A stretch of DNA of 56,968 bases from Prolixibacteraceae bacterium (GCA_016933815.1 JAFGAF010000517.1:1-56968); one strand, 5' to 3'; counted from the stretch's first letter, positions 6,382 through 45,343 are shown. Notes: generated by a model from the sequence alone, not told the origin. Translations and numbers: made by a program.

Positions 6382-6386
6382 AATTT

Positions 6387-7577
6387 TTATTTTTTTAGTC
6401 GGTTACAAACTTCAATCAGCGCCCGCGAGTTGTGATAAGGACATTTCCAAAACCCGGCCTTTTCGTCTTCTAAAAGTGGATTTCCACTACTATCGATGCG
6501 TCCAAACCATTCACCATTCTTACGGTCAATGAGGCGCAAATCAATAAAGTTCCAAACCTTTTCTGCTTCAGTAAGATACATCATGTTTCCGGTTGTTTGC
6601 CAGGCATTTACATATCCAACCATTGCTTCGGCCTGAGGCCACCAATGTTTGTCGGTATCGGTATGACCGGCTTCGGTTTCGTAAAAAATTGAACCATCGG
6701 TGTCGGTGCCTTCATTTAAAGTTACATCAACCATTCGAACAGCCATTTTGTTAACCTCGGCAAGGAGTGCTTCATCGGCTAACTCTTCGGCAGCCTCAGC
6801 CAATAGCCACGATCCCTCAATGTCATGTCCATACGATATTATTTCTGATTTAACTGTCCAGTCGTAGTCGAAAAACAAATTGAAATGAGCAGTATTTGCA
6901 TCAATAATACGATCGAGAAAAACGCGAATAATTTTTTTGATGCTTTCGGCTAAAATCGGGTTTTTCCAGCAACGATAAAGGTTGGTATATGGCTCAAGTA
7001 TGTGCAAATGGGTATTCATCGATTTTGGTTCATTTGCATCTTTAAGGCTTAACCTCATATCGTCCAAATGACTCCAATCATTGGCCAAAGCTTCAATATA
7101 ACCACCATTTTTGCTATCGTAAAAATTCTTTTCAATGGTCCAGAAAAGTTCCTGTGCCAAAAGTAAGGCTTTTTCGTTGCCGCAGGCACGATAAAACTCC
7201 GACAAACCATAAATAGCAAAACCCTGAGCATAAGCTTGTTTGCGGGTATTTACCGGTTTGCCAAGGTAATCGAGCTCCCAAAACACCCCTCCATTTTTTT
7301 TATCAATAAAAAAGTTGGCAATGTAGTTGAAAGCTTTCTCGGCCATTTGCAAATATTCAGATTTTTTGGAATAATTGTAAGCTGCTGAAAAAGACCACAA
7401 AATGCGGCTATTTAAAATTGCACCTTTGTTTGCCTTTGGGTTTACCTTTCCAAAACTGTCAATAGAGCCAAAAAAACCACCATTTTTATGATCAACAGCC
7501 TTTGTTCCCCAAAACCCCATAATCCGCTCAAGTTCCTGTTCCTGAACTTTAATCATTTCGGTAATTGCCCTTATCAT
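6387..7577 (-). CDS. AGE-family cellobiose/mannobiose 2-epimerase
   Basis: KGAILNSRILW, SMNTHLHILE, SYGHDIEGSWLL, WWPQAEA, WKCPYHNSR. Confidence 0.92.
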   Translation of the reverse strand: MIRAITEMIKVQEQELERIMGFWGTKAVDHKNGGFFGSIDSFGKVNPKANKGAILNSRILWSFSAAYNYSKKSEYLQMAEKAFNYIANFFIDKKNGGVFWELDYLGKPVNTRKQAYAQGFAIYGLSEFYRACGNEKALLLAQELFWTIEKNFYDSKNGGYIEALANDWSHLDDMRLSLKDANEPKSMNTHLHILEPYTNLYRCWKNPILAESIKKIIRVFLDRIIDANTAHFNLFFDYDWTVKSEIISYGHDIEGSWLLAEAAEELADEALLAEVNKMAVRMVDVTLNEGTDTDGSIFYETEAGHTDTDKHWWPQAEAMVGYVNAWQTTGNMMYLTEAEKVWNFIDLRLIDRKNGEWFGRIDSSGNPLLEDEKAGFWKCPYHNSRALIEVCNRLKK

Positions 7578-7578
7578 G

Positions 7579-8754
7579 TTACTTAAGCTTTTTATTTGAA
7601 TCGATCAATTGGTTTATGGTATCGACCGACAAATGAGAGTGCAAACGGTCTTCGGGTGTGTTCATGCAATAATCAATTAACTGATCGATTGTAGTTGTGG
7701 CCACATGCATTCGGGTATCCGACGAGGCATAATAAATGAAAACTTTGCCGTCTTCATCGGCAATCCAACCATTTGCAAAAACAACATTCGACACATCGCC
7801 TACCCTTTCGTTTTGTAACGGAGCAATAAAATGGCCGTTTGGTTTGTGAATTATTTTGGTGACATCGTTTTTATCCGACATAAAAACATAAAGCACATAC
7901 CGCAAGCCGGCAGCAGTATTTCGCACGCCATGTGCCAAATGTATCCAGCCTTTTTCGGTATAAATTGGATGCGGACCTTGTCCGTTTTTTACCTCATAAA
8001 CAGTGTGATAGGTTTTACTGTCGATAATTTTTTCGTCGGGTACTTCAGCGTTTTCAATACTATCTGAAAGCCCCCAGCCAATACCGCCTCCTTTTCCGGT
8101 ATCGATAAAGCCATCTTGCGGGCGGGTAAAAAATGCATATTTTCCATCAACGAATTTTTCGAACAGCACAACGTTTCGTTGTTGACCGCCGTGCGAAATC
8201 AAATCGGGCAAACGTTCCCAGTTGATCAAATCTTTAGTGCGAACTATACCTGCAGTAGCAGTAGCGCTCGAAGTATCGCCCTCGGGGGCGTTTGGATCTT
8301 TGCGCTCGGCACAAAAAACACCATAAATCCATCCATCTTCGTGAGCTGTAAGGCGCATGTCGTAAACATTGGTGTCCCAGTCATCGGTTTGAGGAATGCT
8401 AATCGGGCGATCCCAAAACCTGAAATTATCGATACCGTTTGGGCTTTCGGCTATGGCAAAAAACGATTTCCGATCGTTACCTTCAACACGAACAACCAGC
8501 AAATACTTATCGTTCCACTTTATTGCCCCCGAATTAAATGTTGCGTTAAAACCAATGCGCTCCATAAAAAACGGATTGGTAGCAGGATTAAAATCAAATC
8601 GCCAATGAAGCGGCACATGTTCGCGTGTTAAAACAGGTTTTTTATAACGATTGTAAATGCCATTGGTACTAAACAGCATTTCATTTTTGTCCGACAGTAA
8701 AGCTTGGTGCTTTGCTTCAATCACTGCCTTTCTTTCATCAAATAATGAATTCAT
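7579..8754 (-). CDS. GH130 4-O-beta-D-mannosyl-D-glucose phosphorylase
   Basis: RVEGNDRKSFFA, NVYDMRLT, TRPQDGFI, AHGVRNTAAGLRY, GDVSNVVF, YYASSDTR. Confidence 0.93.
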   Translation of the reverse strand: MNSLFDERKAVIEAKHQALLSDKNEMLFSTNGIYNRYKKPVLTREHVPLHWRFDFNPATNPFFMERIGFNATFNSGAIKWNDKYLLVVRVEGNDRKSFFAIAESPNGIDNFRFWDRPISIPQTDDWDTNVYDMRLTAHEDGWIYGVFCAERKDPNAPEGDTSSATATAGIVRTKDLINWERLPDLISHGGQQRNVVLFEKFVDGKYAFFTRPQDGFIDTGKGGGIGWGLSDSIENAEVPDEKIIDSKTYHTVYEVKNGQGPHPIYTEKGWIHLAHGVRNTAAGLRYVLYVFMSDKNDVTKIIHKPNGHFIAPLQNERVGDVSNVVFANGWIADEDGKVFIYYASSDTRMHVATTTIDQLIDYCMNTPEDRLHSHLSVDTINQLIDSNKKLK

Positions 8755-8920
8755 AATTACTTTTATGGTTTTATACTTAAATAATCATTCAATAAAAATA
8801 TCATTTTATCTTAAGTTTTTTATTAAACAACGTTTAGTTTTTATTTTTAATGCCATTGCCTATTTCTATCAAATATTTTGCAAGAATACAAACAATTCAT
8901 GCGTTGTAACGTTGACAGAA

Positions 8921-9084
8921 GTTTCAAGTATAGGGGGTAAATCATAAGAATACCAAAAACAAGTGAAAAAAATTTGACTTTAAATAAAGCAAAATGGAGT
9001 ACAAAGCATTAATTCTCATCTATTTCGATAATATCTCATTTTAAGTGCAGTAATTTTATACCCCCATTATTGAAACATGTATCC
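8921..9084. promoter_or_regulatory. Pair of oppositely oriented TACCCCC-N4/5-TTGAAAC motifs in the divergent GH130/GH26 intergenic region (candidate HTCS operators)
   Basis: Minus-strand TACCCCC-TATAC-TTGAAAC within 8921-8942 and plus-strand TACCCCC-ATTA-TTGAAAC at 9059-9076. Confidence 0.45.
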
Positions 9085-9138
9085 CATAAAATAATAAATT
9101 CAAACCTTATTATTGACAAAAATTCAAACAGTAACAAT

Positions 9139-10311
9139 ATGATTAACACAAAATTTCTTTTCTTTTCACTTTTATTCTTTGTATTTCAATTATCAAATAC
9201 AGAAATGCACGCAAAAACCAATAATATTTGGATTGATGAACCTACCGAAAACTTATTCAAAAACATACAAAAGCTGGCCAACCAAGGTAAAATAATGTTT
9301 GGCTGTGCCAACCCTACTACTTTAATGTATAAAGAAACCCACATTTATAACGGGTTTGAAAATTCTGATTGCAAGGAAATAACAGGCCAAAATCCGGCGG
9401 TTTACGAAAGTGATTTCATGTGGCATGTCGACCCCAAATTGGTAAATCCAGATAAAGAAGCATCGAAAAAAGCTTACCAACGAGGGGCCGTGGTTGCTTA
9501 CTGCTGGCATCTGCGTGGAATGAACAGTGGCTCATTTTATTCACGAAAAAATAATGAATTTACAAACGACAAGGAACTGCTAAAAAAGATTATTGCAGGA
9601 GGAAACAGGGAAAACAATCGCGAATTGAATTGGTTCTTAACGCAGCTCGATACGCTGGTTATTCCAACGTTTAAAGAATTCGGCTTTCCGGTAATTTTTC
9701 GCCCGTGGCACGAAATGAACGGTGCTTGGTTTTGGTGGGGAAAAGACAACTGTACCCCCGATGAATACATTAAATTATATCGGCTTACCGTTAATTACAT
9801 GCGTGAGAGTAATCTGCGAAATGTATTGTTCGCCTGGAGTCCCGACACCAAATTTACAATGGAATATTATCCCGGAAACGATTATGTCGATATTATTGGC
9901 CTCGACATTTATGAAATGGGGGCAGTACATTACAAGACTCACCAAATGGTTACCCACGAGCTAAAAAAAATGGTCGATTATGCAACCAGCAACAATAAGA
10001 TTGCTGCCATAACCGAAACCGGCCTTCGAATGGAGAATGGTGTTTACCGATATCCGGAGGAGAAACCCGACTATTGGTCGAATTATGTATTGGCGCCAAT
10101 TGTTAACAATCCCGAAATTAACCGAATTGCATGGGTACTTAGCTGGTACAGTTCGGACTGGAGCAAACAACGAAAATCGCAATTTTATTATCCATATAAA
10201 GGTATCGAAAAGGATTTCGGTAACGGACAGGCTGCAATTAACGACTTTATTGATTTTTTTAATCACCCGGCAACAATTTTCGAAGACGACTTGCCTAATC
10301 TTTACCAATAA
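9139..10311 (+). CDS. GH26 beta-mannanase, secreted
   Basis: Signal peptide from ATG 9139; FRPWHEMNGAWFWWG (acid/base), YYPGNDYVDIIGLDIY, AITETG (nucleophile). Confidence 0.92.
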   Translation: MINTKFLFFSLLFFVFQLSNTEMHAKTNNIWIDEPTENLFKNIQKLANQGKIMFGCANPTTLMYKETHIYNGFENSDCKEITGQNPAVYESDFMWHVDPKLVNPDKEASKKAYQRGAVVAYCWHLRGMNSGSFYSRKNNEFTNDKELLKKIIAGGNRENNRELNWFLTQLDTLVIPTFKEFGFPVIFRPWHEMNGAWFWWGKDNCTPDEYIKLYRLTVNYMRESNLRNVLFAWSPDTKFTMEYYPGNDYVDIIGLDIYEMGAVHYKTHQMVTHELKKMVDYATSNNKIAAITETGLRMENGVYRYPEEKPDYWSNYVLAPIVNNPEINRIAWVLSWYSSDWSKQRKSQFYYPYKGIEKDFGNGQAAINDFIDFFNHPATIFEDDLPNLYQ

Positions 10312-10377
10312 TTTTTAAAAAGGAATTACATTAGCACAGCATTTTTTTAATTGCAGCTATAATTTTATTATATTTAG

Positions 10378-13300
10378 GTGTTTATGTTTCATAATAGTAA
10401 GCTCATGCAAGTAAAAATCCGATCCTTTGCGAACATATCGTTTATGGCTGACAAAATCCGTTCAATTAGCATACATTGCATGCTGGCATTTTTAATAATT
10501 GCTTTTGCATGTGGCACATTATCAGCCAATTCGAGTATCGAAAAAATATCGACTGAAACCGATTTACCCGAAGGTGCTGTTAATTGTATTGTTCAAGATA
10601 AAGCCGGTTTTATTTGGATTGGCACATGGAAAGGATTATACCGCTACGACGGCTACAATACAATAAACTTTTCAACTATAAACCAAGAATTTAACGCAAT
10701 AAAAATTGCTGAATTATTAATTGATGGCAATAATTTATGGGTAGGAACTTTTGTTAGCGGCATGTACAAAATCGATCTCTTAACCTACAAAATTACCCGC
10801 TATCATCAAAAAGCCGAAACATGCCAAAGAACTACAGACAATAACATTATTGCAATTTCGGCAATGCCCAACAATAGTATATTGTTTGGCAGCGAAAACG
10901 GAGGACTGACAATAACAAACCCCGATGGCTGTATAGAAGAAAACTTTACTACAAATAGCGAAAACAGCAAGTTCAACAACAACCAGATTAGCAAGTTATG
11001 CCAAATTGATGAAGATAGAATTCTGATTGGAAACAGTGGACTTTTGATATTTAATTTGAAAAATAGAAGTTTTGAAAAAATTGAAAATCAATACTTGCAA
11101 AATTATATAATGGACATTGTGAAGGTTGATGACAATCAATTTTTGGTGTCGACTCTCGATCGCTTGCTCCTGGTAGACTTAAAAAATAACGCTCAACAAG
11201 TGAAAGTTATTTTGGAACAAAAAATAAATGCCATAGTCAAACACGAAAACATTTTTTATTTAGCTGGAAGCAATGGAATTTTACTGTACGATGCATTTAA
11301 CGGAAAATTATCGGAGTTTAATGATAATGAAACAATTAGCAACAAACAATTAGTAATTAATTGCTTTTTAACAACACACGACAATGCCCTTATTGCCGGA
11401 AGCGAAAGTGGCTTGTACACCATTTCGAACCGAAAGCAACAATTTTTACACATCGACTCTCACACCGAAACCCAAAGCACCAATATTGTAAGTTGTATTG
11501 AAACATGGGAAAACAGCATGATTATTGGTACCTGGGGTAATGGTTTGTATAAACTAAATCATAAAACACATCAACTCGAAGCACTCAAATTCAGCAATTA
11601 CAAACAGAACCCTCCCCGATTTATTTATGCTACCAAAACCATCAACAACAATTTTTGGTTTTCGGATAAAAACGAAATGGGAATATTTAAAATTGAAACC
11701 AATAAAGAGCCCTATCGGTTGCAACATTACCTTAATTTTAACGGCATCGAAAACGAAAGTGGTTATTATACAATAACTTGCATATCGGGCAGTGATAACA
11801 ATTCGTTCATTGTAGGTACGTGGGATGGTTTACTTTTTAGCTATAATGAATTCAAAAACAGTTTCGAAATAATAAAAGACCAAAACGGACAACTCCCTGC
11901 ATCGAAAGACATCTCAATTTTTTCGATACTTAAAGACAATCAAGGTTTTACTTGGCTAGCATTAAGTGGTGGCGGTGTTATTAAAATGAAAATTGTAAAC
12001 AACATTATTCTATCTCAAGAAATTATTACCGTTAACAACGGTTTGGCCAACAACTTTACAACTACCCTATTCCAAAGTAAAAACCAAAAAATTTGGATTG
12101 GTACCGAAGCCGGACTATCGGTTTATAACAACGGTCAAATCGAAAACCTATACCATAACAACATTATTCTCGACATACAGTCGATTGCCGAGGATCCAAT
12201 TGGTTTTTTGTGGCTTGGAACCCCAAATGGCATTTATCGCATTAATTCAAACAACCACAACGAAGCTTTTAAAAACTTCGACACCTCTGATGGTTTGATC
12301 AACAAATCGTTTTTTTTAAACAGCATATATGCCGATAGCAATCAAGTATTTTATTTTGGAGGATATAATGGAATCGACTATTTTACTCCCTACAAAATTG
12401 AGTTTAACTACCAAAAACCTGCACCCAAAATAACAAATTTCCAAATACTTAACCGTAATATATTTCCAAACAATGCATCGGACCAAACAATTTTGCGCAA
12501 AACAATAACCGAAACCAGCGAAATTGAATTAAAGCACAATCAAAATTCATTTTCGTTTGAATTTTCGAACCTCGAATACCTTAACCAGGAGAAATGTCAG
12601 TTTGCCTTTAAGCTCGAAGGGGTTGATAATGAATGGAATTATCGCGACTCGAAACAACGTTATGCTTACTACACCAAACTATCGCCCGGCAACTATACAT
12701 TTCACTTAAAAAGCACCAACAACGACGGCTTATGGTCCGACGAAACACTTAGTCTTTCCATAAATATTCTTCCGCCATTTTGGGCATCGACTTTTGCTTA
12801 CATTATTTATTTTATTACTGCAATGCTCACCATTTTTCTGGTTATTTACAACCGGGTTATGAAAATGCAGCATAATCATCAGCAAAAACTCAAAGAAATT
12901 GAATACAAGAAGCAGAAAGAACTTGATGAACTTAAATTGCGGTTTTTTACCAATATTTCGCACGAATTCAGAACCCCTCTCACACTCATTTTGGGGCCAT
13001 TATCGAAACTGCTTGAAACAGAAAAGAACAACCCATACAAAGAAGCCCACCTGATGATTTTCAGAAATGCCGGTCGTTTATTACAATTGACAAATCGTAT
13101 TCTCGATTTTAGAAAAAACGAAAACGAACAGCTCAAATTAAAAGTAAGCGAAACCAATGTTTCCGATTTTGTTTATAACATCTTCTTGTTTTTTAATTAC
13201 GAAGCACAAAAGCGTGACATCGATTACCGTTTTAAAACCAATTTCGATCAAAAACAGCTTATCGACAGGGAGTTTATCGAAAGTGTTTGTTTCAATTTAT

Positions 13301-14484
13301 TATCGAATGCTTTTAAATACACCCCCGATGGCAAAAGCATTACAGTAGGCGTTGATCCGCACAACGATGGTATTTCGATTTGGGTTGCCGACACAGGCCC
13401 TGGTATAGAGCCTCAAAACCTGCAACACATTTTCGACAGATTTTACACAACCAACAAGCAAAACAGCGCAGGCATAGGCCTAAGCTTTTCAAAACGACTT
13501 ATTGAATTACACAAAGGCGAATTAAAAGTAGAAAGCGAATACGGACATGGAAGCAAATTTACCGTTGTTTTACCCTCCGATTCGGTTTATTCAAACGAAC
13601 AAAAACAAACCGCCGACAGCAAAGAACAAACAGTTGATTGGAAAAAAATTGATCAAACCGTTCAAAAGCAACATACCGAACAAATCAACAACCTTAAAAG
13701 TATTTTCGACAAGGACGAAATGGTTGCCCTCATAGTTGACGACAACTTTGAAGTAAGGCAGTTTTTGACTTCACTTTTAAACGAAAACTTCAAGGTTATT
13801 GAAGCATCGAACGGCGAGCAGGCACTCGAAATTGCCTTTAACAATATCCCCGACATAGTAATTTCGGATGTGATGATGCCCGGTATTGATGGCTACCAAC
13901 TTTGCCAAAAGCTAAAAAACGACGAAAGAACCGATCATATCCCCGTTATATTAACAACAGTTTTATCGAGTCAAGACGACCGAAACGAAGGATTGCTTAA
14001 AGGAGCCGACTCGTACATACCAAAACCCATTGACCCCGAGCACTTACTGATAAGGGTTAACAAGCTGATTGAAAAGCAACTAAAATTGAAAGAGAAATTC
14101 AAAATAAGTAATTTTTCGGCTGCAAATGAAAATAAAGAAACAAACAAATCCGATGTACATCCGCTGGTTGAAAAAGCACACAAAATTGTACTTAAAAACA
14201 TTGATAATTCGGAATACAATATCGACGATTTTTGTAACGACCTTGGATTAAGCCGAATGCAATTGTATCGGAAATTCAAAGCAATTACCGGGCTTTCGGC
14301 AAACAGTTTTATCAGAAAAGTACGTTTGCACAAGGCCGCCGAGTTACTTAAAACAGGCAATTACACGGTAAAAGAAGTAACTTACGATGTAGGTTTCATC
14401 GATTTAAAATACTTTAGAAAATGCTTCTACGACGAGTTTGGAGCAAATCCTTCAGATTATGCACAATCAGGTAAATCAATATAG
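10378..14484 (+). CDS. Hybrid two-component system regulator (beta-propeller/Y_Y_Y sensor, HisKA, HATPase, receiver, AraC)
   Basis: IWIGT repeats, YTKLSPGNYTF, TM helix, FFTNISHEFRTPL, NLLSNAFKYT, SDVMMPGIDG, AraC SRMQLYRK...YFRKCF; exact start uncertain. Confidence 0.95.
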   Translation: MFMFHNSKLMQVKIRSFANISFMADKIRSISIHCMLAFLIIAFACGTLSANSSIEKISTETDLPEGAVNCIVQDKAGFIWIGTWKGLYRYDGYNTINFSTINQEFNAIKIAELLIDGNNLWVGTFVSGMYKIDLLTYKITRYHQKAETCQRTTDNNIIAISAMPNNSILFGSENGGLTITNPDGCIEENFTTNSENSKFNNNQISKLCQIDEDRILIGNSGLLIFNLKNRSFEKIENQYLQNYIMDIVKVDDNQFLVSTLDRLLLVDLKNNAQQVKVILEQKINAIVKHENIFYLAGSNGILLYDAFNGKLSEFNDNETISNKQLVINCFLTTHDNALIAGSESGLYTISNRKQQFLHIDSHTETQSTNIVSCIETWENSMIIGTWGNGLYKLNHKTHQLEALKFSNYKQNPPRFIYATKTINNNFWFSDKNEMGIFKIETNKEPYRLQHYLNFNGIENESGYYTITCISGSDNNSFIVGTWDGLLFSYNEFKNSFEIIKDQNGQLPASKDISIFSILKDNQGFTWLALSGGGVIKMKIVNNIILSQEIITVNNGLANNFTTTLFQSKNQKIWIGTEAGLSVYNNGQIENLYHNNIILDIQSIAEDPIGFLWLGTPNGIYRINSNNHNEAFKNFDTSDGLINKSFFLNSIYADSNQVFYFGGYNGIDYFTPYKIEFNYQKPAPKITNFQILNRNIFPNNASDQTILRKTITETSEIELKHNQNSFSFEFSNLEYLNQEKCQFAFKLEGVDNEWNYRDSKQRYAYYTKLSPGNYTFHLKSTNNDGLWSDETLSLSINILPPFWASTFAYIIYFITAMLTIFLVIYNRVMKMQHNHQQKLKEIEYKKQKELDELKLRFFTNISHEFRTPLTLILGPLSKLLETEKNNPYKEAHLMIFRNAGRLLQLTNRILDFRKNENEQLKLKVSETNVSDFVYNIFLFFNYEAQKRDIDYRFKTNFDQKQLIDREFIESVCFNLLSNAFKYTPDGKSITVGVDPHNDGISIWVADTGPGIEPQNLQHIFDRFYTTNKQNSAGIGLSFSKRLIELHKGELKVESEYGHGSKFTVVLPSDSVYSNEQKQTADSKEQTVDWKKIDQTVQKQHTEQINNLKSIFDKDEMVALIVDDNFEVRQFLTSLLNENFKVIEASNGEQALEIAFNNIPDIVISDVMMPGIDGYQLCQKLKNDERTDHIPVILTTVLSSQDDRNEGLLKGADSYIPKPIDPEHLLIRVNKLIEKQLKLKEKFKISNFSAANENKETNKSDVHPLVEKAHKIVLKNIDNSEYNIDDFCNDLGLSRMQLYRKFKAITGLSANSFIRKVRLHKAAELLKTGNYTVKEVTYDVGFIDLKYFRKCFYDEFGANPSDYAQSGKSI

Positions 14485-15886: not shown

Positions 15887-16324
15887 TTACTGATTTCCTC
15901 CGCCACGAGGAGCTCCACGCCTTACGGGCTGATTAGGTCCGCCCTGTTGAGCTCTGTCGCGTCGTTGTTGCATACGTTGTTCTTCTAATTCAATGTGCTT
16001 CTTGTATTGTTCATCGGTTAAAACACCTTTCAGTTCCTTGTTCTTTTCTTCGCGAATGGTTTGCATCTTTTCGAAAAATTGCGAACGATCGGCTTCGCCG
16101 GCGTTTTGGAACATTTCGCGCATTTTGTCGCTGTATTTTTTATTCAGCGCTTCAACTTTTTTTGTTTGTTCGGCATTCAAACCCAAATCGTTGGTCATTT
16201 GCTCGGTTTGCCGTTTTACCATTTCTTCAGGGTCGAACTGACCCCCCATACCACCTCCCGGAGGCTGAGCTTTTATAGCTATTGCAGCTAAAAGAACCAA
16301 GGTAAATAATAATATTTTTTTCAT
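15887..16324 (-). CDS. Small secreted helical protein (DUF4890 / Spy-CpxP-like)
   Basis: Signal peptide, MTNDLGLNAEQ and VLTDEQ (LTXXQ-like) motifs, Gly/Arg-rich termini. Confidence 0.75.
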   Translation of the reverse strand: MKKILLFTLVLLAAIAIKAQPPGGGMGGQFDPEEMVKRQTEQMTNDLGLNAEQTKKVEALNKKYSDKMREMFQNAGEADRSQFFEKMQTIREEKNKELKGVLTDEQYKKHIELEEQRMQQRRDRAQQGGPNQPVRRGAPRGGGNQ

Positions 16325-16406: not shown

Positions 16407-17177
16407 TTATCCTAAAAGTTTTTCCCTTTTCTGCAAATTCATTAAAGCAGCCAAAAGAAAAACAACTGCTCCCGAACCCAAAAATATTCGGTTTTTACTG
16501 CTCAAAACGCTCCAAACCATTTCGCTAGTTCCCGAAGGTATGGCATAAGGATTAAAAAACACGTTCCACATCGACTGGGCAATCTCATCGGATAAAACCA
16601 TCAAAATAAAGCCCAGAATGATAATTGTAGCTGCTGTTGCATTTCCCGATCGTAAAACTGTTGATAAAAAGAAAGTTAAAAAGCCCAGAAATGCCAATGG
16701 AAACAATACTTGCAAAACCATTTCGAAAACAGCAAACGATACAAATACATAGCGAATTAAATAAGCCAGTAAAAGCATCACAATAAAAGTAAGAACATAA
16801 ATGAGCATCAAGCGCATAAACCAAACCCTGAAACGGTAATCGGGAATACCAAAAATTATCTCCATTGTACGGGCATCTTTATCGCTTTGAATTCCGAACG
16901 AGGCCGGATAAAATATCAACAAAGCACCAGTTAAAAGCAAAATAGTGTAAACGCCTTGTTCGCTAAGCATTTCGCCATTAAATAAATTAATGCCAATAAT
17001 TAAAAACGATAATACAATGGCGCTAATCAAGAAATAGATAAAACGGTTTCCAAAAACAATTTTCAAATTGTATTTAACCATTACAAAAGCATTCAGTATC
17101 GGCGAAAACCAATTATTCAATGCATTAACGCCTTTAGGACTGCTCATTTTCAATATATTTTCTTGAATTTGTTGCAT
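16407..17177 (-). CDS. ABC-2-type permease-like membrane protein (~6 TM)
   Basis: Amphipathic N-terminal helix, SDKDARTMEIIFGIP coupling-helix-like motif, ~6 hydrophobic segments. Confidence 0.65.
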   Translation of the reverse strand: MQQIQENILKMSSPKGVNALNNWFSPILNAFVMVKYNLKIVFGNRFIYFLISAIVLSFLIIGINLFNGEMLSEQGVYTILLLTGALLIFYPASFGIQSDKDARTMEIIFGIPDYRFRVWFMRLMLIYVLTFIVMLLLAYLIRYVFVSFAVFEMVLQVLFPLAFLGFLTFFLSTVLRSGNATAATIIILGFILMVLSDEIAQSMWNVFFNPYAIPSGTSEMVWSVLSSKNRIFLGSGAVVFLLAALMNLQKREKLLG

Positions 17178-17209: not shown

Positions 17210-20200
17210 CTAAACAGGTTTGGCCTTTTGCAGCCACAAATAAGCATCTTCGAGATTTGGATCAACACCAAAGGCATTGCTGTGGGGTTTTTGATCAGAA
17301 ATGATTCGCAAACGCACATTATCGCCCTGTTTAGCATGATGGGCTACTACAAATTCCCGAGTGTATTTTTCGAATTCGCTTTCGGGTACTTCCAACTGCC
17401 AAACATGTCCTTTGGCCGAATCGGTCATATTGCGTGGCGAGCCAACATATTGCACACTACCCTTTCGTAATACGGCCAAACGGTTACACGAACTGGCAAT
17501 ATCTTCAATAATGTGAGTCGAAAAAATAACAATACGTTCGCGGCTCAGTTCAACAAGCAGGTTACGGAAACGGATGCGCTCACGAGGGTCGAGGCCGGCT
17601 GTAGGCTCATCGACAACCAGAATGCGGGGCAAATGAAGCAATACCTGGGCAATGCCAATGCGTTGTTTCATACCTCCCGAAAACGAACCAATTTTTTTGT
17701 TCCTGTTTTCCCACATTTTTACGCTCTCAAGTACCTGTTTTACCCTTTCGTTGCGTACTTCGGGAACATTTATCTTTTTCAAAATCGATTGATATTGAAG
17801 ATAATCCCAAGCTGTCATGTTTTCATACATACCAAAATCTTGTGGCAAATAACCAATTAAACCTTGCAGCTCTTCACGCTTTAAATCGGCATCGATGTTG
17901 TTGAACCACACCTTGCCGTAGCTTTGTGTATTGATGCCGCAAATTGCGCGCATTAATGTAGATTTACCTGCACCATTGGGGCCCAGCAAACCGTACATGC
18001 CCTTGCCAATTTCGAGTGTAACTGCATTCAATGCTTTAAACGGCTTTTGCTTTTTACCAATTATTGGTATTGAAAGCACAAAACGATAGATGCCTGCTTT
18101 GAAATCACTGAATTTGCCACTAATGCGGTTAACATTAATTTTTTCGTCGTGAATCTTATTCGAAAAGAAATCTATTGCCAACAAGAAATAAACAAGCACG
18201 ATCAGAATTATTGATAATGCAATATTATCGATTCTGAAATACAAATAAGCCACTGCTGCTAAAGGCGAAAACCAATGCCAAATTGAAAGGGCAATGCTAC
18301 TTGCTCTTTTCATTTTTTGGGTATTATAGGCAAGGTTTTTAAGCATTTTAAATTGATTTTGAGCAAAGAAGTAAATAATAATCATTGCCAAAACAACCCA
18401 AATTGTACTTTCAACATAAAAGAAAGCCATATAGACCAAGAATGCTAAAAGAGGTAATTGCCAGGTAAACGATTTCAGATCGGACAAACGATTAAACTGT
18501 TGACTTTCGCCAAAATGTTCACGCAATTTGATTCCACCATTCCATTCGCGGGCAAATCGTCCTTTTCGGCCGTAAATTTTCACCAAATTTTGTATCCTGA
18601 TAACTATTTCATCATCGGCCGATACAATTGTTTCGCTTGCTTTACGCAGGCTATTCATAATGAACCATACAGCAGCAGGCACCAAAGTAATGAGCAAAAT
18701 AAAGCAAACCATCTGCCAAATAAAGCCATTTATTCCTGTATATATTAAATAGGCTCCAATTGCAAATAAGCTATATTGTAATATTTTCAGCCATAGCTTA
18801 AGGCCTCTGAACCAGGCAAGCGCACTGTGCAAACCAAGATAAAAAGTAGGAATAAATATTAGTGTAAGTACAGTACTGAAGGCCAAGCCACCAATTACAG
18901 TGAGGGCAAACGGAGCGCCAATAACTCCTACGTATTCCGATTTACCCATTGCTAATGGCAACATTGCTACAATTGTTGTAATTGCTGTAATCAATATTGG
19001 CCGCATGCGCGCCAAACCTGCCATTATTAATGCACGTTGCATTCGGTAACCTCTTTTTTGCAATATATTGTTGTAGTCGATTAAAATTATTCCATTATTA
19101 ACAACCACGCCCAATAATATTATAAAACCGGTTAAAGTGTTGGCCGACAGCAGTGTGTTGCCGGTAAAAATCAACATAAACAACGAACCGATTGCGGCCA
19201 GCGGTATCGAAAACATCATTACAAAAGGAGTAGCAAACGATTCAAATACCGAAGCTAAAATCATAAAGATGAGAATAAAAACCATTGCAATCAATGGATA
19301 ATAAGCTGCAAAATCATCTTCATCGTGTATCACCTGAACGGCAATTCCGGCAGGCAGCGGAAGTGAGGCAATTAATTGGTCAACTTCGTTACGTGCAGCT
19401 TCGAGCAAATCTTTGTTTTCGTTAATTTCGCTACTGAAGCTGTAGGTAAGTTCAATTTCTTTTTCCTGATTCAAACGGTTTATACGTGCAATGCCCGAGC
19501 TGAAATATATTCGGGTAATGTCCTGCAATTCGAAAATTCCCCCATCGTTGCTGCTAATTTCGAGTCTTTCGAGATCGTTAAGGCGCATTGGCGGCAGCTC
19601 GGTAATCGTATCGGTACGGATGATTATTTCGTATTCTTCGTTATCTTGTTTGTAGTTGAAGCCCGATTCAATTTCTTTTCTGAAAGCTGACAATTCCGAC
19701 AAAACATTGTTCATTGGAATATTATTTCGACCAAAACTTTCCGAATCGAAATTCAAGTGTACTTCGGGGCGGTTCGATGATTGGTTGCTACGAACCCTTT
19801 CTGTTTCGTCCAAATCGTCGAGATAATATTGAATATCCTCGGCAATTGTTTTCATCAAATCGTAGTTATGGCCTTTAATGAGCACGCGTTCCTCGTTGCT
19901 GCCAATGCCCATCATTCGTTCCATACGTTGAGCCTGACGCATACCACCTCCGCCTGCACCAAATTGTTCGCTAGATGCCGATTGTTCAAAATCGATTTCG
20001 GCATTGCGATCGTGCTTATCCATAATTTTCTTGATCTCGTTTTTCACGCCATCAAAATCGCGGTTTTCGAGCTTCTCAAAATTTTCGTGCAATAAAACGG
20101 TTAAAATAGCCGATTCTTCTTCAATTTGACTGCTAATGCTTTTTTTCTCAACAATTTCCATCAAATCTTTTTCCATTTCGGCAACCAAAGCATCGGTTTT

Positions 20201-21913
20201 TTCAAGACTAGCCCCTGCATCCATGGTAACATAAATCTTAACCTGATCGTTTTCAACCTCTTGCAATGCTTGTGTTTGGGTTGCCAAGCTTATCAACAAA
20301 GTTGCAAAGAAAACCACCACTGCTCCCATAATGGTTGCAATTGGGTTGCGCATGGCAGTTTTAAGCAACAACACATAAACTTGTACCATTCGGTTTCGAA
20401 TCGAAATTTTTTCGAACACAGCAACCGACTGGCGCTTGTTTTGGTTTCGCAATATGAGGTAGGTGATCATTGGTATGAACAGCAGCGCCACCAAAAACGA
20501 TATGAACAAAGTTGAAACAATTGACACACCTATTTGTCGGCCAAAGAGCTGAACAACAATATCATCGGTAAAGAAGAATGGAAGGAATACGCATATAGTG
20601 GTGAGCGTAGCAGCAAAAACCGAACGCCAAACCTCGCGTGTACCGTCAATAACAGCATCCTTAAGCGAGGCGCCTGCACCAGCAAGCCGATAAATGTTTT
20701 CGAGTACAACTACACTGTTATCTATAAGCATTCCAATGGCCAAAGCCATACCTACCAATGTTAAACTGTTAATGGTAATGTTGAAATAATAAAAGAAATT
20801 AAATGCTGCATATACCGAAATTGGAATAGACAATGCAACAACAGTAACCAAACGGATATTCCGAAGGAAAAACCATAGAATTATTACTGCTAAAATCCCT
20901 CCAACCAAAGCCAAATTGATGATTTGGTCGATGTTTTTTTCCATTGTTTCTGCCGAATCGGACTCGATTAACAATTCGACACCAACCCCTGCCAGATTTT
21001 CGTTCAGCTTTTCGATTGCTTCTCGGGTACGGTGCGAAAGGTCGATCAAATTGGCCGTATTGTCGTTGATGAGCATTAAACTAATTACATCGAGACCATT
21101 AACGCGGCTGTACGAAGTTTCCTCTTTCGTTCCGAAAGTAATTGAGGCGATGTCTTTTAGCTTTAAGCCCGAACTTTGGTTAACCACAACGTTGCCAATA
21201 TCCGAAACAGCATTAAACTCGGCCGAAACATTTACCAAATACCGGTTTGTACCTTCAAAAACTTCGCCGGCAAAAGTTCGTTCGTTATAACTGCTTTGCA
21301 ACAATTGCCTTATTCGCGAAGGGCTTAAGTTGTAGGCTTTGGCCACATCGGGGGCAATTTCGATTGTAATTGATTTTTGCCTGCCACCATATACGTTTAC
21401 ACTTGCTATTCCATCAATATTGAGCAATTGATCGCTAATTTCTTCGTCGGTAATGTTACGCAAACGGTCAACTCCACCCTCGCCAATAATCTGTATCGAC
21501 ATAAACTGGTTGGTGGCCGACCTTGTGTCAACTTTATCGACAGTTACATTAAAGTCTTCGGAAATAATTGATTTTGAAGCATTTATTTTTTCCTGCAACC
21601 TTAATTGAGCATATTTAAGGTTAACACCTTCGTTGTAACTAACCTGAATTGTTCCGTTTCGCCGTGTGGCTACCGATGAAATTTCGGCAACCCCATCGAG
21701 CTGTCCAATAATGCCTTCGAGTGGAATAATGGCTTGGTTTTCCATGTAAGCCGGATCGACTTCGATAGAAGCGTTTACCATAACCACCATCATCGGCATT
21801 TCGGGCGTTGGGTACAATTCCATGTTCAGCTTTTTGTAAGATATTACGCCAAGCATTACCATGGAAAGGAAAACCATGCTGATGAGTACTTTTCTTCGAA
21901 TAATAAAATCCAT
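17210..21913 (-). CDS. RND (AcrB/AcrD/AcrF) permease fused to a C-terminal ABC ATPase domain
   Basis: aa ~1-1030 RND (GMLIDNSVVVLENI, FESFATPF, RMRPILIT); C-terminus GPNGAGKST, YLPQDFG, FSGGMKQR, VVDEPTAGLD, STH in one uninterrupted 1567-aa ORF. Confidence 0.92.
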   Translation of the reverse strand: MDFIIRRKVLISMVFLSMVMLGVISYKKLNMELYPTPEMPMMVVMVNASIEVDPAYMENQAIIPLEGIIGQLDGVAEISSVATRRNGTIQVSYNEGVNLKYAQLRLQEKINASKSIISEDFNVTVDKVDTRSATNQFMSIQIIGEGGVDRLRNITDEEISDQLLNIDGIASVNVYGGRQKSITIEIAPDVAKAYNLSPSRIRQLLQSSYNERTFAGEVFEGTNRYLVNVSAEFNAVSDIGNVVVNQSSGLKLKDIASITFGTKEETSYSRVNGLDVISLMLINDNTANLIDLSHRTREAIEKLNENLAGVGVELLIESDSAETMEKNIDQIINLALVGGILAVIILWFFLRNIRLVTVVALSIPISVYAAFNFFYYFNITINSLTLVGMALAIGMLIDNSVVVLENIYRLAGAGASLKDAVIDGTREVWRSVFAATLTTICVFLPFFFTDDIVVQLFGRQIGVSIVSTLFISFLVALLFIPMITYLILRNQNKRQSVAVFEKISIRNRMVQVYVLLLKTAMRNPIATIMGAVVVFFATLLISLATQTQALQEVENDQVKIYVTMDAGASLEKTDALVAEMEKDLMEIVEKKSISSQIEEESAILTVLLHENFEKLENRDFDGVKNEIKKIMDKHDRNAEIDFEQSASSEQFGAGGGGMRQAQRMERMMGIGSNEERVLIKGHNYDLMKTIAEDIQYYLDDLDETERVRSNQSSNRPEVHLNFDSESFGRNNIPMNNVLSELSAFRKEIESGFNYKQDNEEYEIIIRTDTITELPPMRLNDLERLEISSNDGGIFELQDITRIYFSSGIARINRLNQEKEIELTYSFSSEINENKDLLEAARNEVDQLIASLPLPAGIAVQVIHDEDDFAAYYPLIAMVFILIFMILASVFESFATPFVMMFSIPLAAIGSLFMLIFTGNTLLSANTLTGFIILLGVVVNNGIILIDYNNILQKRGYRMQRALIMAGLARMRPILITAITTIVAMLPLAMGKSEYVGVIGAPFALTVIGGLAFSTVLTLIFIPTFYLGLHSALAWFRGLKLWLKILQYSLFAIGAYLIYTGINGFIWQMVCFILLITLVPAAVWFIMNSLRKASETIVSADDEIVIRIQNLVKIYGRKGRFAREWNGGIKLREHFGESQQFNRLSDLKSFTWQLPLLAFLVYMAFFYVESTIWVVLAMIIIYFFAQNQFKMLKNLAYNTQKMKRASSIALSIWHWFSPLAAVAYLYFRIDNIALSIILIVLVYFLLAIDFFSNKIHDEKINVNRISGKFSDFKAGIYRFVLSIPIIGKKQKPFKALNAVTLEIGKGMYGLLGPNGAGKSTLMRAICGINTQSYGKVWFNNIDADLKREELQGLIGYLPQDFGMYENMTAWDYLQYQSILKKINVPEVRNERVKQVLESVKMWENRNKKIGSFSGGMKQRIGIAQVLLHLPRILVVDEPTAGLDPRERIRFRNLLVELSRERIVIFSTHIIEDIASSCNRLAVLRKGSVQYVGSPRNMTDSAKGHVWQLEVPESEFEKYTREFVVAHHAKQGDNVRLRIISDQKPHSNAFGVDPNLEDAYLWLQKAKPV

Positions 21914-25005: not shown

Positions 25006-26058
25006 CTATTTTTGTACCCTTACCTTAGCCCTGTTCGATAGCATTTGATAGCCTTCGATTACCAATTTTTCGCCGGGTTCGAGGCCGCTTACAATTTCAA
25101 CTTCGGTATCGGTTTCGATGCCGGTGTTTACCCTTTTTTCAACAGCTGTATTGCGTTCAACAACATATACTACTTTACCTCTTCGTTTATTTTGAACCAA
25201 TTCGCGGTCGACAACTATTGCGCTGTCGCGACGTTCAACAACCACTTCGGCCTTAACAAACATTCCAGGGCGCATTTTAAGTTCGGGGTTCGAAATGCTC
25301 ATAACACCTTTAAATGTGCGCGATGCTTCGTTAATTGCAGGCGAAAGCTGTGTAATAACAGCCCTAAGCGTATCATCTTTAAGGTTATAATTGCTTACGT
25401 AAGCTTCTTGTCCGGCTTGGATGGTAGTAATAAATTTCTCGGGGAAATCGGTTTGCATAATCAATTTGCTGTAATCCATCATGCTTGCTACTTTAGTTCC
25501 GGAACTGATTTTTACATCGGGCGTAAAATATGGCAAATCAACAATTACCCCGTCGAACGGAGCTGCTACCTGCAGTTTTTTCATTTGCAACTCGGCATTT
25601 TCGAAATCGTAACGAGTGTTGATATAGCTAAGTTCAGCATTTTGCATCTCACGCTGTGTAACACCACCCTTTTCGAACAACGATTGCTGTTTGTCGTATT
25701 CTTGTTTGGCATTTTCCAAATCGAGTTTTTTGGCTTCAATTCGTATGCTCAATTCGTATTCAGGATTATCGAGTTCAACCAAAACTTCGCCTTTATAAAC
25801 TTTGTCGCCCAAGCGATAGGGTTTACCTGTACGTTTGTTGGTGTTTAAGCGGTATTTGCCCTCCGACTCGGTATTCAAATCGGCACTGGCACAAGGACTA
25901 ACGGTTCCGTTAATACTTGTGGTATTGAAAATTGTTTTTTTAACAACATCGGTTACCCTAACAGGTACACTTACATCGGCTCCTTGAGTAGGTGCCTGAT
26001 TCTGACAGCTTGCAAAAAAGGCAACAGCCAATATTAAAGTCCAACTTAGCTTCTTCAT
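25006..26058 (-). CDS. RND periplasmic adaptor (MFP) lipoprotein
   Basis: Lipobox FFASC, coiled-coil hairpin, APFDGVI, MRPGMFV, EIVSGLEPGEKLV. Confidence 0.93.
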   Translation of the reverse strand: MKKLSWTLILAVAFFASCQNQAPTQGADVSVPVRVTDVVKKTIFNTTSINGTVSPCASADLNTESEGKYRLNTNKRTGKPYRLGDKVYKGEVLVELDNPEYELSIRIEAKKLDLENAKQEYDKQQSLFEKGGVTQREMQNAELSYINTRYDFENAELQMKKLQVAAPFDGVIVDLPYFTPDVKISSGTKVASMMDYSKLIMQTDFPEKFITTIQAGQEAYVSNYNLKDDTLRAVITQLSPAINEASRTFKGVMSISNPELKMRPGMFVKAEVVVERRDSAIVVDRELVQNKRRGKVVYVVERNTAVEKRVNTGIETDTEVEIVSGLEPGEKLVIEGYQMLSNRAKVRVQK

Positions 26059-26070
26059 AATGTGGTATTA

Positions 26071-27552
26071 TTAATCGATTTGAAATTCAGATGAATACTC
26101 TGACGGAACAATAGAAGTATTACTTTCAAAATCCCACAGAGTTTGTATTTTAAGGTTTAAAAATTCGAGTTTATAACTAATTAATGCATTGGTTAATTCG
26201 TTTCGTTTCGACGATAATTGGTTTTGGTACAAACTGAGATCCATACTGGTAAGATCGCCGTTCTGGTATTTTTCGACATTCAGCTCGTAAGTACGACGTG
26301 CATTTTCGACACTTTTTTCAGCAATTTCGATCTGATACACCAAGTTTTGCATATTGCGATATATTTCGCGGATATTAAGTTGTATCGATATTTTTTCGTT
26401 GTCGAAATTCAATTCCTGCATTTGCAACGATGCTTCGGCAGCCTTGAGGTTCGAACGTTTTTGCCCCCAATCGTAAACAGGTATTTCAAATGATATTTCG
26501 AATTGTTGTTGATCGGTTGGCGATTGGTAAATATTTCCAATTTGTTCGTTATCGCCGACCAAACCAACTGCCAACGAAACATTTCCTTTAAATTCGTTGT
26601 TTGCATCTACCCTTATGAGGTTAAACTGTGCATTTTCGATATCAATTTCGCGCTGGCGAAGTTCCATTCGTTGCTTTAGTGCATAATCGATAGCATCGGT
26701 CATATCAACATCAACAGTTTTTACATCAACATTAGCCAACACATCTACATCATTATCCAAATCGATTCCAATGGTTTGTTTTAGTTGATCTTTGGCATTA
26801 TCGAGCGATACTTGTGCGTTGTAAACCGACGAGCGTGCATTGGCAAGGTTCAATTCAGCCTGCCATAATTCTTCTTGTGCAGCCAGTCCGGCATCTACTT
26901 TGTTCTTTATAATTTCGTGCGATTTTTCTTGATTGGTCAACTCTTCTTTACTAATAAAAAGGCTTTGTTGACGCTGATAAACCTGATAAAACAATTGGCT
27001 TACCTGTCGCTCGATTGTTAATTTTTGCATTGCATAGCTCAACAAGGCATTTTCGAGGTCGAGCTCAAGCTCACGCAGGTTCATTTTTGTACGATTGTAA
27101 GTAAAAATAGGCTGATCGAACTGTAAACGCACATTGTTGCTGAACGAGTTGATTGCCGGGTTGTTGTTGAGCGAGTTACTTTGAAAACCAAAGCGATTAA
27201 CCAAGCTTAGCGTTCCGTCGGTTGCTTTAATGGGCTGTACAACACTAAATGTGCCGCTCGATCCCATGTTTTCGTAATTTCGCCACTCCTGAAAATCCTG
27301 CGAATACTCACGGGTGTTGTTGTAAGTAAAAGGGCTTACATTTAAAAAGAATTTTGATTTTAGTCCAGCCCTCTGTGCGTTGAGTGATTCGCGGCTTCGT
27401 AAAAGGTTAAGTTTCGACTGTACAATCGAAGGGCTGTTTTCGTAAGCAATTTCGAGAGTACGTTCGAGTGTTAGTAAATCCTGAGCACTGATTGTTAAGG
27501 CATTAAATCCCAGCAGGATAAACATAACAAAAAAGTAAGATTTTGTTCTCAT
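26071..27552 (-). CDS. TolC-family outer membrane efflux protein
   Basis: Signal peptide, LTLERTLEIAYENSP, QPIF / IPVYDWG strands, OEP helical repeats. Confidence 0.9.
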   Translation of the reverse strand: MRTKSYFFVMFILLGFNALTISAQDLLTLERTLEIAYENSPSIVQSKLNLLRSRESLNAQRAGLKSKFFLNVSPFTYNNTREYSQDFQEWRNYENMGSSGTFSVVQPIKATDGTLSLVNRFGFQSNSLNNNPAINSFSNNVRLQFDQPIFTYNRTKMNLRELELDLENALLSYAMQKLTIERQVSQLFYQVYQRQQSLFISKEELTNQEKSHEIIKNKVDAGLAAQEELWQAELNLANARSSVYNAQVSLDNAKDQLKQTIGIDLDNDVDVLANVDVKTVDVDMTDAIDYALKQRMELRQREIDIENAQFNLIRVDANNEFKGNVSLAVGLVGDNEQIGNIYQSPTDQQQFEISFEIPVYDWGQKRSNLKAAEASLQMQELNFDNEKISIQLNIREIYRNMQNLVYQIEIAEKSVENARRTYELNVEKYQNGDLTSMDLSLYQNQLSSKRNELTNALISYKLEFLNLKIQTLWDFESNTSIVPSEYSSEFQID

Positions 27553-30946: not shown

Positions 30947-31843
30947 TTACAGGCTATTTAGAACTGATTCGGTTTTGTGTTCCATGTAATATACATAGGC
31001 ATGTTCGAGGGTTGGATCGATTGCTGAGTGCTGGTATCCGTTAGCATGTTCGGCTACAACTTCGAGATCCCATCCTCCAATTGACGGAACAGTGGATATA
31101 ACATTAAAATTTACATTTATTTCGTCGAATTGCTCGTGAGTGGCATGTATGCGCCATACTTTACCTTTTGCTTCGTTTATGAGCGCTTCGGGTGAGCCAT
31201 CGAAAACAATACGACCACTACGGAGCAAAACTGCATGGTTACAGGTGCTTGAAATATCGCCAACTATGTGTGTACTTAAAATGATTATTACATCGCGGGT
31301 GCTTATTTTTGTTAGTAGATTTCTGAAACGGATACGCTCATCGGGGTCGAGGCCGGTTGTAGGTTCATCAACAATAATGATGCGGGGGTCGCCAATAAGC
31401 GCCTGCGCAATGCCTAAGCGTCGTTTCATCCCGCCCGATAAATTATTGGCATACCTTTCGCGTACTTCATAAAGACCAACTTCTTCGAGCATTTCGTCAA
31501 CATTATCGCGCCGTTTACGATTATCTTTCAAACCACCCAAACGAGCCGAATAGTCTAAAAATTCCCAGGTTTTTAATTTTGGGAAAGCACTGAAATCTTG
31601 TGGCAGATATCCGGTAAACGAACGAATTGCCTTGCGGTTTTTACTTAAAGGCATGCCATTTACAAAAACCTCGCCCGTACTTGCGTTCATTAAAGAAACT
31701 AATATACGCATCAAAGTTGATTTTCCGGCACCGTTTGAGCCCAAAAGACCAAACATTCCGTTTTCAATTTCAATATTTACCGAGTTAAGAGCTTTATGCC
31801 CGTTACTATAAATCTTTGTGAGGTTTTGAATTGATATGTTCAC
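30947..31843 (-). CDS. ABC transporter ATP-binding protein (ABC-2 partner type)
   Basis: GSNGAGKST, YLPQDF, LSGGMKRR, IVDEPTTGLD, STH; probable GTG start at 31843 (track extends to 31912). Confidence 0.93.
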   Translation of the reverse strand: MNISIQNLTKIYSNGHKALNSVNIEIENGMFGLLGSNGAGKSTLMRILVSLMNASTGEVFVNGMPLSKNRKAIRSFTGYLPQDFSAFPKLKTWEFLDYSARLGGLKDNRKRRDNVDEMLEEVGLYEVRERYANNLSGGMKRRLGIAQALIGDPRIIIVDEPTTGLDPDERIRFRNLLTKISTRDVIIILSTHIVGDISSTCNHAVLLRSGRIVFDGSPEALINEAKGKVWRIHATHEQFDEINVNFNVISTVPSIGGWDLEVVAEHANGYQHSAIDPTLEHAYVYYMEHKTESVLNSL

Positions 31844-31917
31844 CTTTATTCGTTTTATGTCAATACGCCATTTGATGACATAAGTCAATAAAGGTTTAAA
31901 GTTAAGTAACATTAAAT

Positions 31918-43986: not shown

Positions 43987-44574
43987 ATGAAAACAAATAT
44001 AATTTTAGCAGGTGTAGGCGGACAAGGAATTTTGTCGATTGCTGCTGTTCTTGGCGAAGCTTCGTTGCAAAACAATTACTATCTGAAACAAGCAGAAACT
44101 CATGGAATGAGCCAAAGGGGCGGAGCAGTTGTTTCGCACCTACGCATTGCCGACAGCCCCATTGCAAGCGATTTAATTCCAATGGGGAAAGCCGACATTA
44201 TACTTTCAGTCGAACCAATGGAATCGTTGCGTTACCTCGATTTTTTGAAAAAAGGCGGATACCTGGTGAGCAATTCCACCCCATTTGTAAATATTCCCAA
44301 CTACCCCAGTATTGAGGAAATACACAGCGAAATTAATATGCAATCGCATGCAGTTTTGATCGATGCCGATAAAATTGCAAAAGAAATTGGAAACGGTAAA
44401 GCTTCAAACATGGTGATGTTAGGTGCTGCTTCTCCTTTTATTGAGATTCCGCTCGAAAATATCGAAAAGGCAATCAATCAAGTTTTCGAACGCAAAGGTG
44501 CCGATATTGTTGAGCTTAACCTAAAAGCATTTAATGCAGGTCGTAATTTCTCGTTGGCCAACAGCAAAAATTAA
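43987..44574 (+). CDS. iorB: Indolepyruvate oxidoreductase beta subunit
   Basis: AGVGGQG, ETHGMSQRGG, NMVMLGA; start ATG 43987. Confidence 0.93.
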   Translation: MKTNIILAGVGGQGILSIAAVLGEASLQNNYYLKQAETHGMSQRGGAVVSHLRIADSPIASDLIPMGKADIILSVEPMESLRYLDFLKKGGYLVSNSTPFVNIPNYPSIEEIHSEINMQSHAVLIDADKIAKEIGNGKASNMVMLGAASPFIEIPLENIEKAINQVFERKGADIVELNLKAFNAGRNFSLANSKN

Positions 44575-45338: not shown

Positions 45339-45343
45339 AAATT

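Follow-up and report, generated by a model that had tools for sequence, protein, structure and literature searches.

The 56,968-nucleotide stretch of Prolixibacteraceae bacterium DNA analysed here (GCA_016933815.1, JAFGAF010000517.1:1-56968; hereafter the window) encodes, in one open frame, a resistance-nodulation-division (RND) permease joined to an ATP-binding cassette (ABC) ATPase, and the first beta-strand of this ATPase (beta1) is separated from the second (beta2) by 178 residues containing four predicted membrane helices. The RND-ABC ATPase fusion with its split ATPase is a real, conserved and structurally coherent protein, apparently not described before. Database names for it are generic only, and a literature search, which did not extend to subscription papers or supplements, gave no paper on a fusion of this kind, nor any on an ABC ATPase domain that contains membrane helices. 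From complex modelling, the fused ATPase is predicted to power an adjoining ABC-2-type permease rather than the RND pump, and the insert is likely a membrane anchor with a gate-helix-like element.

The fusion matches the Pfam family ACR_tran (PF00873) over aa 2-1027 with 536.8 bits, which corresponds to the full AcrB-type domain and includes the GX3DX6E motif, and ABC_tran (PF00005) over aa 1296-1439 with 99.2 bits (cut-off 25). The beta1 segment IQNLVKIY lies at aa 1107-1114 (nt 18595-18572), and KALNAV, the start of the continuation, at aa 1293 (nt 18037). The gap between them holds hydrophobic segments at aa 1153-1167, 1171-1183, 1212-1226 and 1231-1247. In the free ABC ATPase of the same operon, the equivalent strand is only 4 residues ahead of its beta2, and from beta2 onward the fused and free ATPases are 42% identical. 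The whole fusion has 18 predicted transmembrane (TM) helices, including two between RND TM12 and beta1 that are seen in both the AlphaFold model and the hydropathy profile. An earlier note on this DNA had described the split of 178 residues, the four hydrophobic segments, the two further helices and a total of about 18, and had suggested an alignment of the two ATPases; all coordinates agree with it, and an equivalent beta1 strand is present in both proteins.

The split beta1 is predicted to fold back onto beta2 and to complete the ATPase sheet. An AlphaFold model of aa 1001-1567 (131 alignment rows, pLDDT 83) shows beta1 as a strand (1105-1114), followed by a helix (1119-1133), four long helices within 1143-1256, a further helix (1269-1280) and beta2 (1292-1302). 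Free, solved ABC ATPases superpose on this model from their first residues, which fall on model residues 101-104, at the split beta1; for MJ0796 (1l2t), 219 of 230 residues were aligned, with a root-mean-square deviation of 3.9 and a Z of 22.2. A second AlphaFold model, which stops short of the ATPase core (aa 1030-1302), reached a pLDDT of 89; beta1 and beta2 are its only strands, so that they pair with each other there as well. Both models and the superposition thus speak for the pairing that the earlier note had proposed and rule out, at the level of prediction, a beta1 left as a relic outside the fold. In the best 120 homologs, V1111 and Y1114 are conserved in 100% and K1112 in 99% of the sequences, the Tyr being kept in 120/120. 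The motifs of the fused ATPase are retained in nearly all copies, fragments counted: Walker A in 170/171, the signature in 164/171, Walker B with the catalytic Glu in 167/171 and the H-loop in 167/171. The fused ATPase is split yet motif-complete, and may hydrolyse ATP.

The insert looks like a membrane module in the homologs compared. Among 70 non-redundant homologs, the median best 19-residue hydropathy of the four insert helices (TM15 to TM18) was 1.64, 1.86, 1.52 and 2.35, with a value of at least 1.5 in 64%, 81%, 50% and 97% of the sequences, respectively; the third helix is therefore marginal, since it reaches 1.5 in half of the homologs. In the same set, the mean number of Lys and Arg was 13.1, 5.4 and 11.1 in the predicted inside loops and 0.4 and 1.0 in the short outside turns (7-8 residues), and this clustering of basic residues on the inside places both halves of the ATPase in the cytoplasm. 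Sequence and models together predict that the four helices cross the membrane as two hairpins. Conservation (71 non-redundant rows) is 0.84 in beta1 and 0.86 in beta2, and 0.63, 0.39, 0.39 and 0.51 in the four insert helices, which are the least conserved part of the region, the exceptions being single near-invariant Trp or Pro residues and the two flanking basic helices. In the basic helix directly after beta1, R1122, W1124 and G1127 are each conserved in 98% of the best 120 homologs.

The region aa 1030-1330 is matched by 2269 proteins of 861-2743 aa among 5112 candidates. The insert loop measures 167-198 aa in 205 of the 211 distinct proteins having the last RND helices and Walker A; the other six comprise single loops of 112, 211 and 4 aa and three misreads of the pattern, two of which have an ordinary insert by eye. 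Most of these 211 proteins were retrieved with the insert as query, which biases the length count towards the insert; with the free ATPase as query, 17 RND fusions were among the matches listed, 16 with the insert and one without it. The beta1 strand is retained in members down to about 30% identity. By source name, the carriers include Prolixibacteraceae, Marinifilum, Mangrovibacterium, Calditrichota, KSB1 and Latescibacterota. Of 201 genomes searched from the order, 25 carry the insert-bearing fusion, and a phylum-level sample gave matches in 5 of 401 genomes, one of the five being a weak non-fusion match. The weak match in G027 (E 5e-4, 414-aa frame) was set aside because it is no fusion. 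Two further candidates proved to be artefacts of N-filled gaps: G469, which seemed to join RND, ATPase and permease in a triple fusion, and G554, a short form of 1365 aa. The number of homologs, the conservation of beta1 and the conserved gene set with its fixed order rule out a chance read-through or an assembly error; the earlier proposal of an evolved fusion holds, and the insert is conserved and membrane-like.

Two natural variants bear on the role and history of the insert. In L050:11823-16457 (genome G483), the insert has 112 aa and two helices, not four, in an otherwise complete operon; a whole hairpin is gone and the helix number stays even. In P0307, a singleton of 1337 aa, the RND part leads straight into an ABC ATPase that is not split, and extra helices are absent. 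The ATPase of P0307 branches beside all insert-bearing ATPases (quick tree, support 89, on a long branch), and a fusion member is the best match of its RND part; for one sequence, this placement fits either a fusion that came first with the insertion later or a secondary loss of the insert. No insert was found outside RND fusions or their fragments, either in 29 matches of 295-940 aa or in 87 matches among 1.84 billion representatives; one match, P0139 (442 aa), has unrelated first 80 residues. A stand-alone origin of the insert was rejected, as all matches apart from P0139 are RND fusions or collinear fragments.

The insert may have arisen by duplication of the neighbouring hairpin. The TM13-14 hairpin, which precedes beta1, resembles the insert hairpin TM15-16 over 28 columns (hhalign probability 83-86%, E about 1e-5), and this likeness suggests that the insert perhaps started as a copy of the adjoining hairpin. 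The signal is modest: among 105 hairpin pairs, the TM5-6/TM11-12 repeat within the RND and four pairs that overlap rank above it. The third hairpin was also considered as a repeat of the other hairpins, with no significant result. The helical module alone had no Foldseek match at E up to 0.001, and its best fold match (Z 9.3) is to three-helix MrpF/NuoK-like subunits with 5-15% identity, in the usual range of helical bundles; such weak matches show neither a new fold nor kinship. The same hairpin likeness, together with the tolerance of this loop to insertions in Wzt and CFTR and the existence of the insert-free P0307, would suit an insert that is simply a tolerated duplicated hairpin without a role, in a fusion that merely secures co-assembly. 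The near-constant loop length, kept down to 30% identity and across several phyla, and the near-invariant residues are at odds with such a relic, which is highly improbable.

The fusion is the sixth gene of a seven-gene operon, in the order free ATPase, large ABC-2-like permease, TolC-like channel, adaptor, unfused RND permease, fusion and small permease. From this content, a complete ABC transporter and a complete tripartite RND pump are encoded together; the earlier note had overlooked the two ABC-2-type permeases and the second ATPase. Gene order was examined in 22 of the 27 other genomes with a genuine match. Among the first 20 loci, 17 show the seven-gene order, sometimes interspersed with stray genes, and both of 2 further loci show it as well. 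The three exceptions are one locus cut by a contig end, one that is broken and gapped, and one that is dispersed; the last is the complete genome G511 (L049, L083, L084, L085), which retains all genes at four distant places. Unrelated open reading frames (ORFs) stand between operon genes, with the order unbroken, at L038:10591-11682, L038:16643-17275 and L039:10920-11912. The conserved gene set contained no kinase, regulator, or glycan or lipid synthesis gene in the loci compared.

The free ATPase is likely the dimer partner of the fused one. Compared with eight other ATPases of the genome, the two form sister groups (SH-aLRT 95, quick tree), and both are motif-complete. Their ATPase relatives adjoin, or are fused to, similar permeases. 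In models of fusion aa 1030-1567 with the small permease, the complex score was 0.67, and the best of three controls had 0.00. The mark for such scores was attained by 116 of 157 complexes of known structure and by 2 of 215 mismatched pairs; these counts apply only approximately when the alignments are self-made, as here. The runs agreed in at least 89% of contacts, with a partner pLDDT of at least 78. At the confident interface, the coupling helix of the small permease meets the Q-loop and the helical subdomain of the ATPase (aa 1347-1384), with two extra contacts at aa 1081 and 1088, the end of TM14. The fused ATPase is therefore predicted to dock on the small permease via the usual coupling-helix groove. 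The confident contacts of this model include no insert residue, which is not evidence against contact. The small permease is present in exactly those 25 of the 201 genomes that have the insert-bearing fusion; 18 of the 25 contributed to its query alignment and 7 did not. Its ABC2_membrane_3 match was found in 4 of 20 members, with a best E of 1.4e-5.

The likeliest explanation, though one with about equal chances of being right and of being wrong, is that the fused ATPase serves as one of the motors in a heterodimeric type V transporter, that the insert anchors this transporter beside the RND pump, and that the basic helix at the gate position moves with ATP, giving an ABC-to-RND relay. It starts from what is read in the sequence: one frame, a split strand, intact ATPase motifs and a fixed seven-gene set. 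In the models, beta1 would lie back on beta2 with Tyr1114 stacking on adenine, and the four helices would rise from the loop as two membrane hairpins, while the fused ATPase is predicted to grip the coupling helix of the small permease. The free ATPase would pair with the large permease, giving the heterodimeric type V transporter. By analogy with Wzt, the basic helix after beta1, at the site of the Wzt gate helix, would be near the permease-permease entry and move on ATP binding, and both RND subunits may form a mixed trimer that is still driven by an ion gradient. Most speculatively, the ABC half could deliver a substrate, amphipathic or lipid-like, into the outer leaflet or the periplasm, from which the tethered RND-adaptor-channel assembly would export it.

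The anchor role is in line with the conservation, low in the insert helices and high in beta1 and beta2, and with the two-helix variant. Several points weigh against the proposal. The favourable complex score may reflect likeness to solved type V transporters, and it was obtained with the small permease alone; among related genomes, the joint presence of operon neighbours does not count as independent evidence that they bind. The family assignment of the small permease is weak: its copy in the window has no Pfam match, sequence comparison gave no solved relative, and its profile aligns collinearly with that of the large permease across 207 columns, yet without significance (E 0.12). The invariant Trp, Pro and Arg residues of the insert exceed the needs of a bare anchor, and because P0307 is a fusion without any extra helix, tethering alone needs no insert. 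A stronger form of the relay, in which an ATP-driven heterodimeric type V transporter sits on an ion-driven RND trimer and the membrane helices of the adenine loop are an ATP-moved gate or lever passing substrate or motion to the RND half, is possible, though doubtful.

Alternatively, the insert may be mainly a substrate gate, in which an enlarged Wzt-like gate helix and the membrane helices feed a lipid-like substrate of the inner leaflet to the permease pair. According to the accessible text of PMC6379404, the gate helix of Wzt is located in the beta1-beta2 loop, as the earlier note had stated, is packed against the permease interface and shifts by about 8 A when ATP binds. In the fusion, the helices after beta1 and before beta2 are basic, with near-invariant R, W and G, and the insert is on only one of the two ATPases, which fits a one-sided entry. 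However, the membrane helices are poorly conserved, one hairpin is lost in L050, no sequence or fold link between the insert and the Wzt helix was found, and glycan and lipid synthesis genes are missing from the conserved set. As the main role, a gate of this kind is unlikely enough to rank as a minority view, and it is compatible with a tether.

The earlier note had suggested that the insert could either transmit ATP-driven motion to the RND part or form a substrate gate. In the first case, the insert would pack on the RND membrane domain and turn ATP binding into RND cycling, replacing protons or adding to them. The covalent link, the attachment of the insert to the A-loop, which moves with nucleotide, and the restriction of the insert to RND fusions or their fragments would agree with this, as would the proton-site residues. 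The D407-D408-K940 triad of AcrB reads D398-N399 in TM4 and N939-N940 in TM10 of the fusion, and the second Asp and the Lys are absent from both operon RNDs. The available part of PMC5719797 describes D-to-N changes that inactivate MexB, and also many RND family members with one acid and no TM10 base, in which, it argues, a single Asp can remain a protonation site. The D-N/N-N pattern was found in 17 of the 28 nearest unfused RNDs examined, so that this pattern is no sign of ATP replacing protons, and D398, E405, N939, N940, R969 and T976 are invariant in 58/58 sequences. The idea that the RND part lost its proton relay when ATP took over was thus not upheld. Furthermore, the ATPase has a predicted ordinary partner in the small permease, which is never missing in the genomes searched, and the insert helices vary in number and sequence, being absent in one form. 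The suggested lever is for these reasons distinctly unlikely, and this part of the earlier suggestion has no support here. Among the unfused RNDs of the phylum (L055-L082), the remaining patterns were D-D/K-N in 6/28 and D-D/N-N in 5/28.

The large permease raises another possibility. It has an ABC2_membrane_2 match (E 1.7e-4) under the Pfam cut-off and about 850 periplasmic residues with weak similarity to M1 peptidases (Pfam E 4e-4, also under the cut-off). Of 18 copies, 17 lack HExxH at the position of the metal site, and the single match is a different peptide. This M1-like outer domain without HExxH, with Golvesin-C at the end of the protein, is possibly a binding domain. ABC proteins such as BceAB, FtsEX and MacB act as sensors or mechanotransmitters. 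Accordingly, the inactive peptidase-like domain could bind a peptide or an envelope signal, with the ATP cycle toggling the RND through the extra helices; the CFTR insertion in the same loop is regulatory in the part of 10.1101/2020.07.09.195099 available to us. Both ATPases and permeases are complete and conserved, as in a working transporter, and the conserved gene set is without kinase or regulator, so that a sensor or switch is improbable compared with the proposed anchored transporter. The features of the fusion and its operon are collected in Table 1.

Table 1. Coordinates of the fusion gene, its parts and the other genes of the operon in the window
Feature	Position	Strand	Evidence or remarks
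RND-ABC ATPase fusion gene, 1567 aa	17210..21913	minus	ORF; Pfam; 2269 homologs
RND permease part, aa 2-1027, 12 TM	18833..21910	minus	proton-site D398, N399, E405, N939, N940, R969, T976
Extra helical hairpin TM13-TM14, aa 1040-1086	18656..18796	minus	N-terminal of beta1
ATPase strand beta1, aa 1105-1114	18572..18601	minus	ends in A-loop aromatic Tyr1114
178-aa insertion in beta1-beta2 loop, aa 1115-1292	18038..18571	minus	
Basic helix directly after beta1, aa 1119-1133	18515..18559	minus	Wzt gate-helix position
Insert helix TM15, aa 1149-1167	18413..18469	minus	W1151 100%, P1154 98%
Insert helix TM16, aa 1170-1186	18356..18406	minus	W1172 99%
Insert helix TM17, aa 1207-1226	18236..18295	minus	W1214 98%, P1217 100%; lowest hydrophobicity of the four
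Insert helix TM18, aa 1231-1250	18164..18223	minus	
Basic amphipathic helix, aa 1269-1280	18074..18109	minus	between conserved R1263/G1266 and P1283; runs into beta2
ATPase core from beta2 and C-terminal domain	17213..18037	minus	Walker A, Q-loop, signature, Walker B and H-loop intact
Small permease, likely ABC-2 (type V) kind	16407..17177	minus	predicted partner of fused ATPase
Second, unfused RND permease, 1023 aa	21920..24991	minus	
Periplasmic adaptor (membrane fusion protein, MFP)	25006..26058	minus	TIGR01730 181.9 bits, cut-off 94.9
TolC-like outer membrane channel	26071..27552	minus	Pfam OEP E 4.5e-45
ABC-2-type permease with large M1-peptidase-like domain and Golvesin-C domain, 1119 aa	27577..30936	minus	
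Free ABC ATPase	30947..31912	minus	ordinary short beta1-beta2 loop

After the operon, the window has a gene for a 145-aa DUF4890/CpxP-like periplasmic protein (15887-16324, minus strand), which, among the loci examined, is next to the operon elsewhere only in the closest relative, L006. A membrane-anchored LytTR regulator (32241-33077, plus strand) is divergent from the operon and is not at that place in related loci. The window also contains a mannan-use cluster at 4996-14484, with a sugar transporter of the major facilitator superfamily, an epimerase, GH130, GH26 and a hybrid two-component regulator, as well as a 266-aa ORF without Pfam match (44571-45371, minus strand) and a tRNA gene (52143-52215, plus strand), the sole Rfam match.

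In the textbook view, an ABC ATPase domain is soluble and uninterrupted, and ABC and RND pumps are two alternative ways of driving one outer-membrane channel. The ATPase domain described here is predicted to pass four times through the membrane, and a single conserved machine, found in Bacteroidota and, going by source names, in Calditrichota, KSB1 and Latescibacterota, combines both engines. If the stronger form of the relay were true, this would be, as far as the literature search reaches, the first integral-membrane ABC ATPase domain and the first covalent ABC-RND coupling. Cultured Marinifilum species carry the fusion, and the natural forms with four helices, two helices and no insert are ready controls, which makes the linking of two energy sources in one exporter testable.

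The closest parallels to the split strand are in Wzt/TarH and CFTR. As in Wzt/TarH, a helix is present in the beta1-beta2 connection of the fusion (aa 1119-1133), a match of position; going by the accessible description of Wzt, which is a homodimer, its element amounts to a single short helix in the cytosol that packs at the permease seam and binds a lipid-linked glycan, whereas the fusion has 178 aa with four predicted membrane helices, in one ATPase of a likely heterodimer and in a protein fused to an RND pump. The regulatory insertion of CFTR NBD1 (residues 405-436), as described in the available part of 10.1101/2020.07.09.195099, is likewise between S1 and S2, after the adenine-binding aromatic and in one domain of an asymmetric pair; however, it has 32 residues and is soluble and disordered, whereas the insert of the fusion is helical and ordered in models (pLDDT 89), with four predicted membrane crossings. 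Both cases make the beta1-beta2 loop a known insertion site, and membrane helices there or an RND fusion were not found in the literature search.

DrrA/GldA/NosF-type ABC-2 ATPases, including TM_1403 (4yer) and NosDFY, are the best family and fold matches of both operon ATPases, and coupling-helix docking is predicted as in this type. In none of the matches listed is the first strand split, and none is partnered with an RND, in contrast to the fusion. The scores are under the family cut-offs, with 169 bits for the fusion and 193 for the free ATPase in GldA (TIGR03522, cut-off 402.6), and 151 and 173 bits, respectively, in DrrA (TIGR01188, cut-off 312.45). As for the export half, MdtABC-TolC-type pumps have an adaptor, an outer channel and two tandem RND genes, as in this operon; among solved structures, MdtB matches the RND part of the fusion best (E 6e-69), and MdtBC is reported as a heterotrimer in the accessible part of a review of tripartite pumps (PMC8277102), in which no ABC-RND hybrid appears. 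Scores of the present system lie far below the NCBIfam cut-offs. MdtABC differs from the present system in having no ATPase or ABC permease, and in D-D and K-N at TM4 and TM10 versus D-N and N-N in the fusion. The parts of this machine are known individually, and their combination is apparently what is new.

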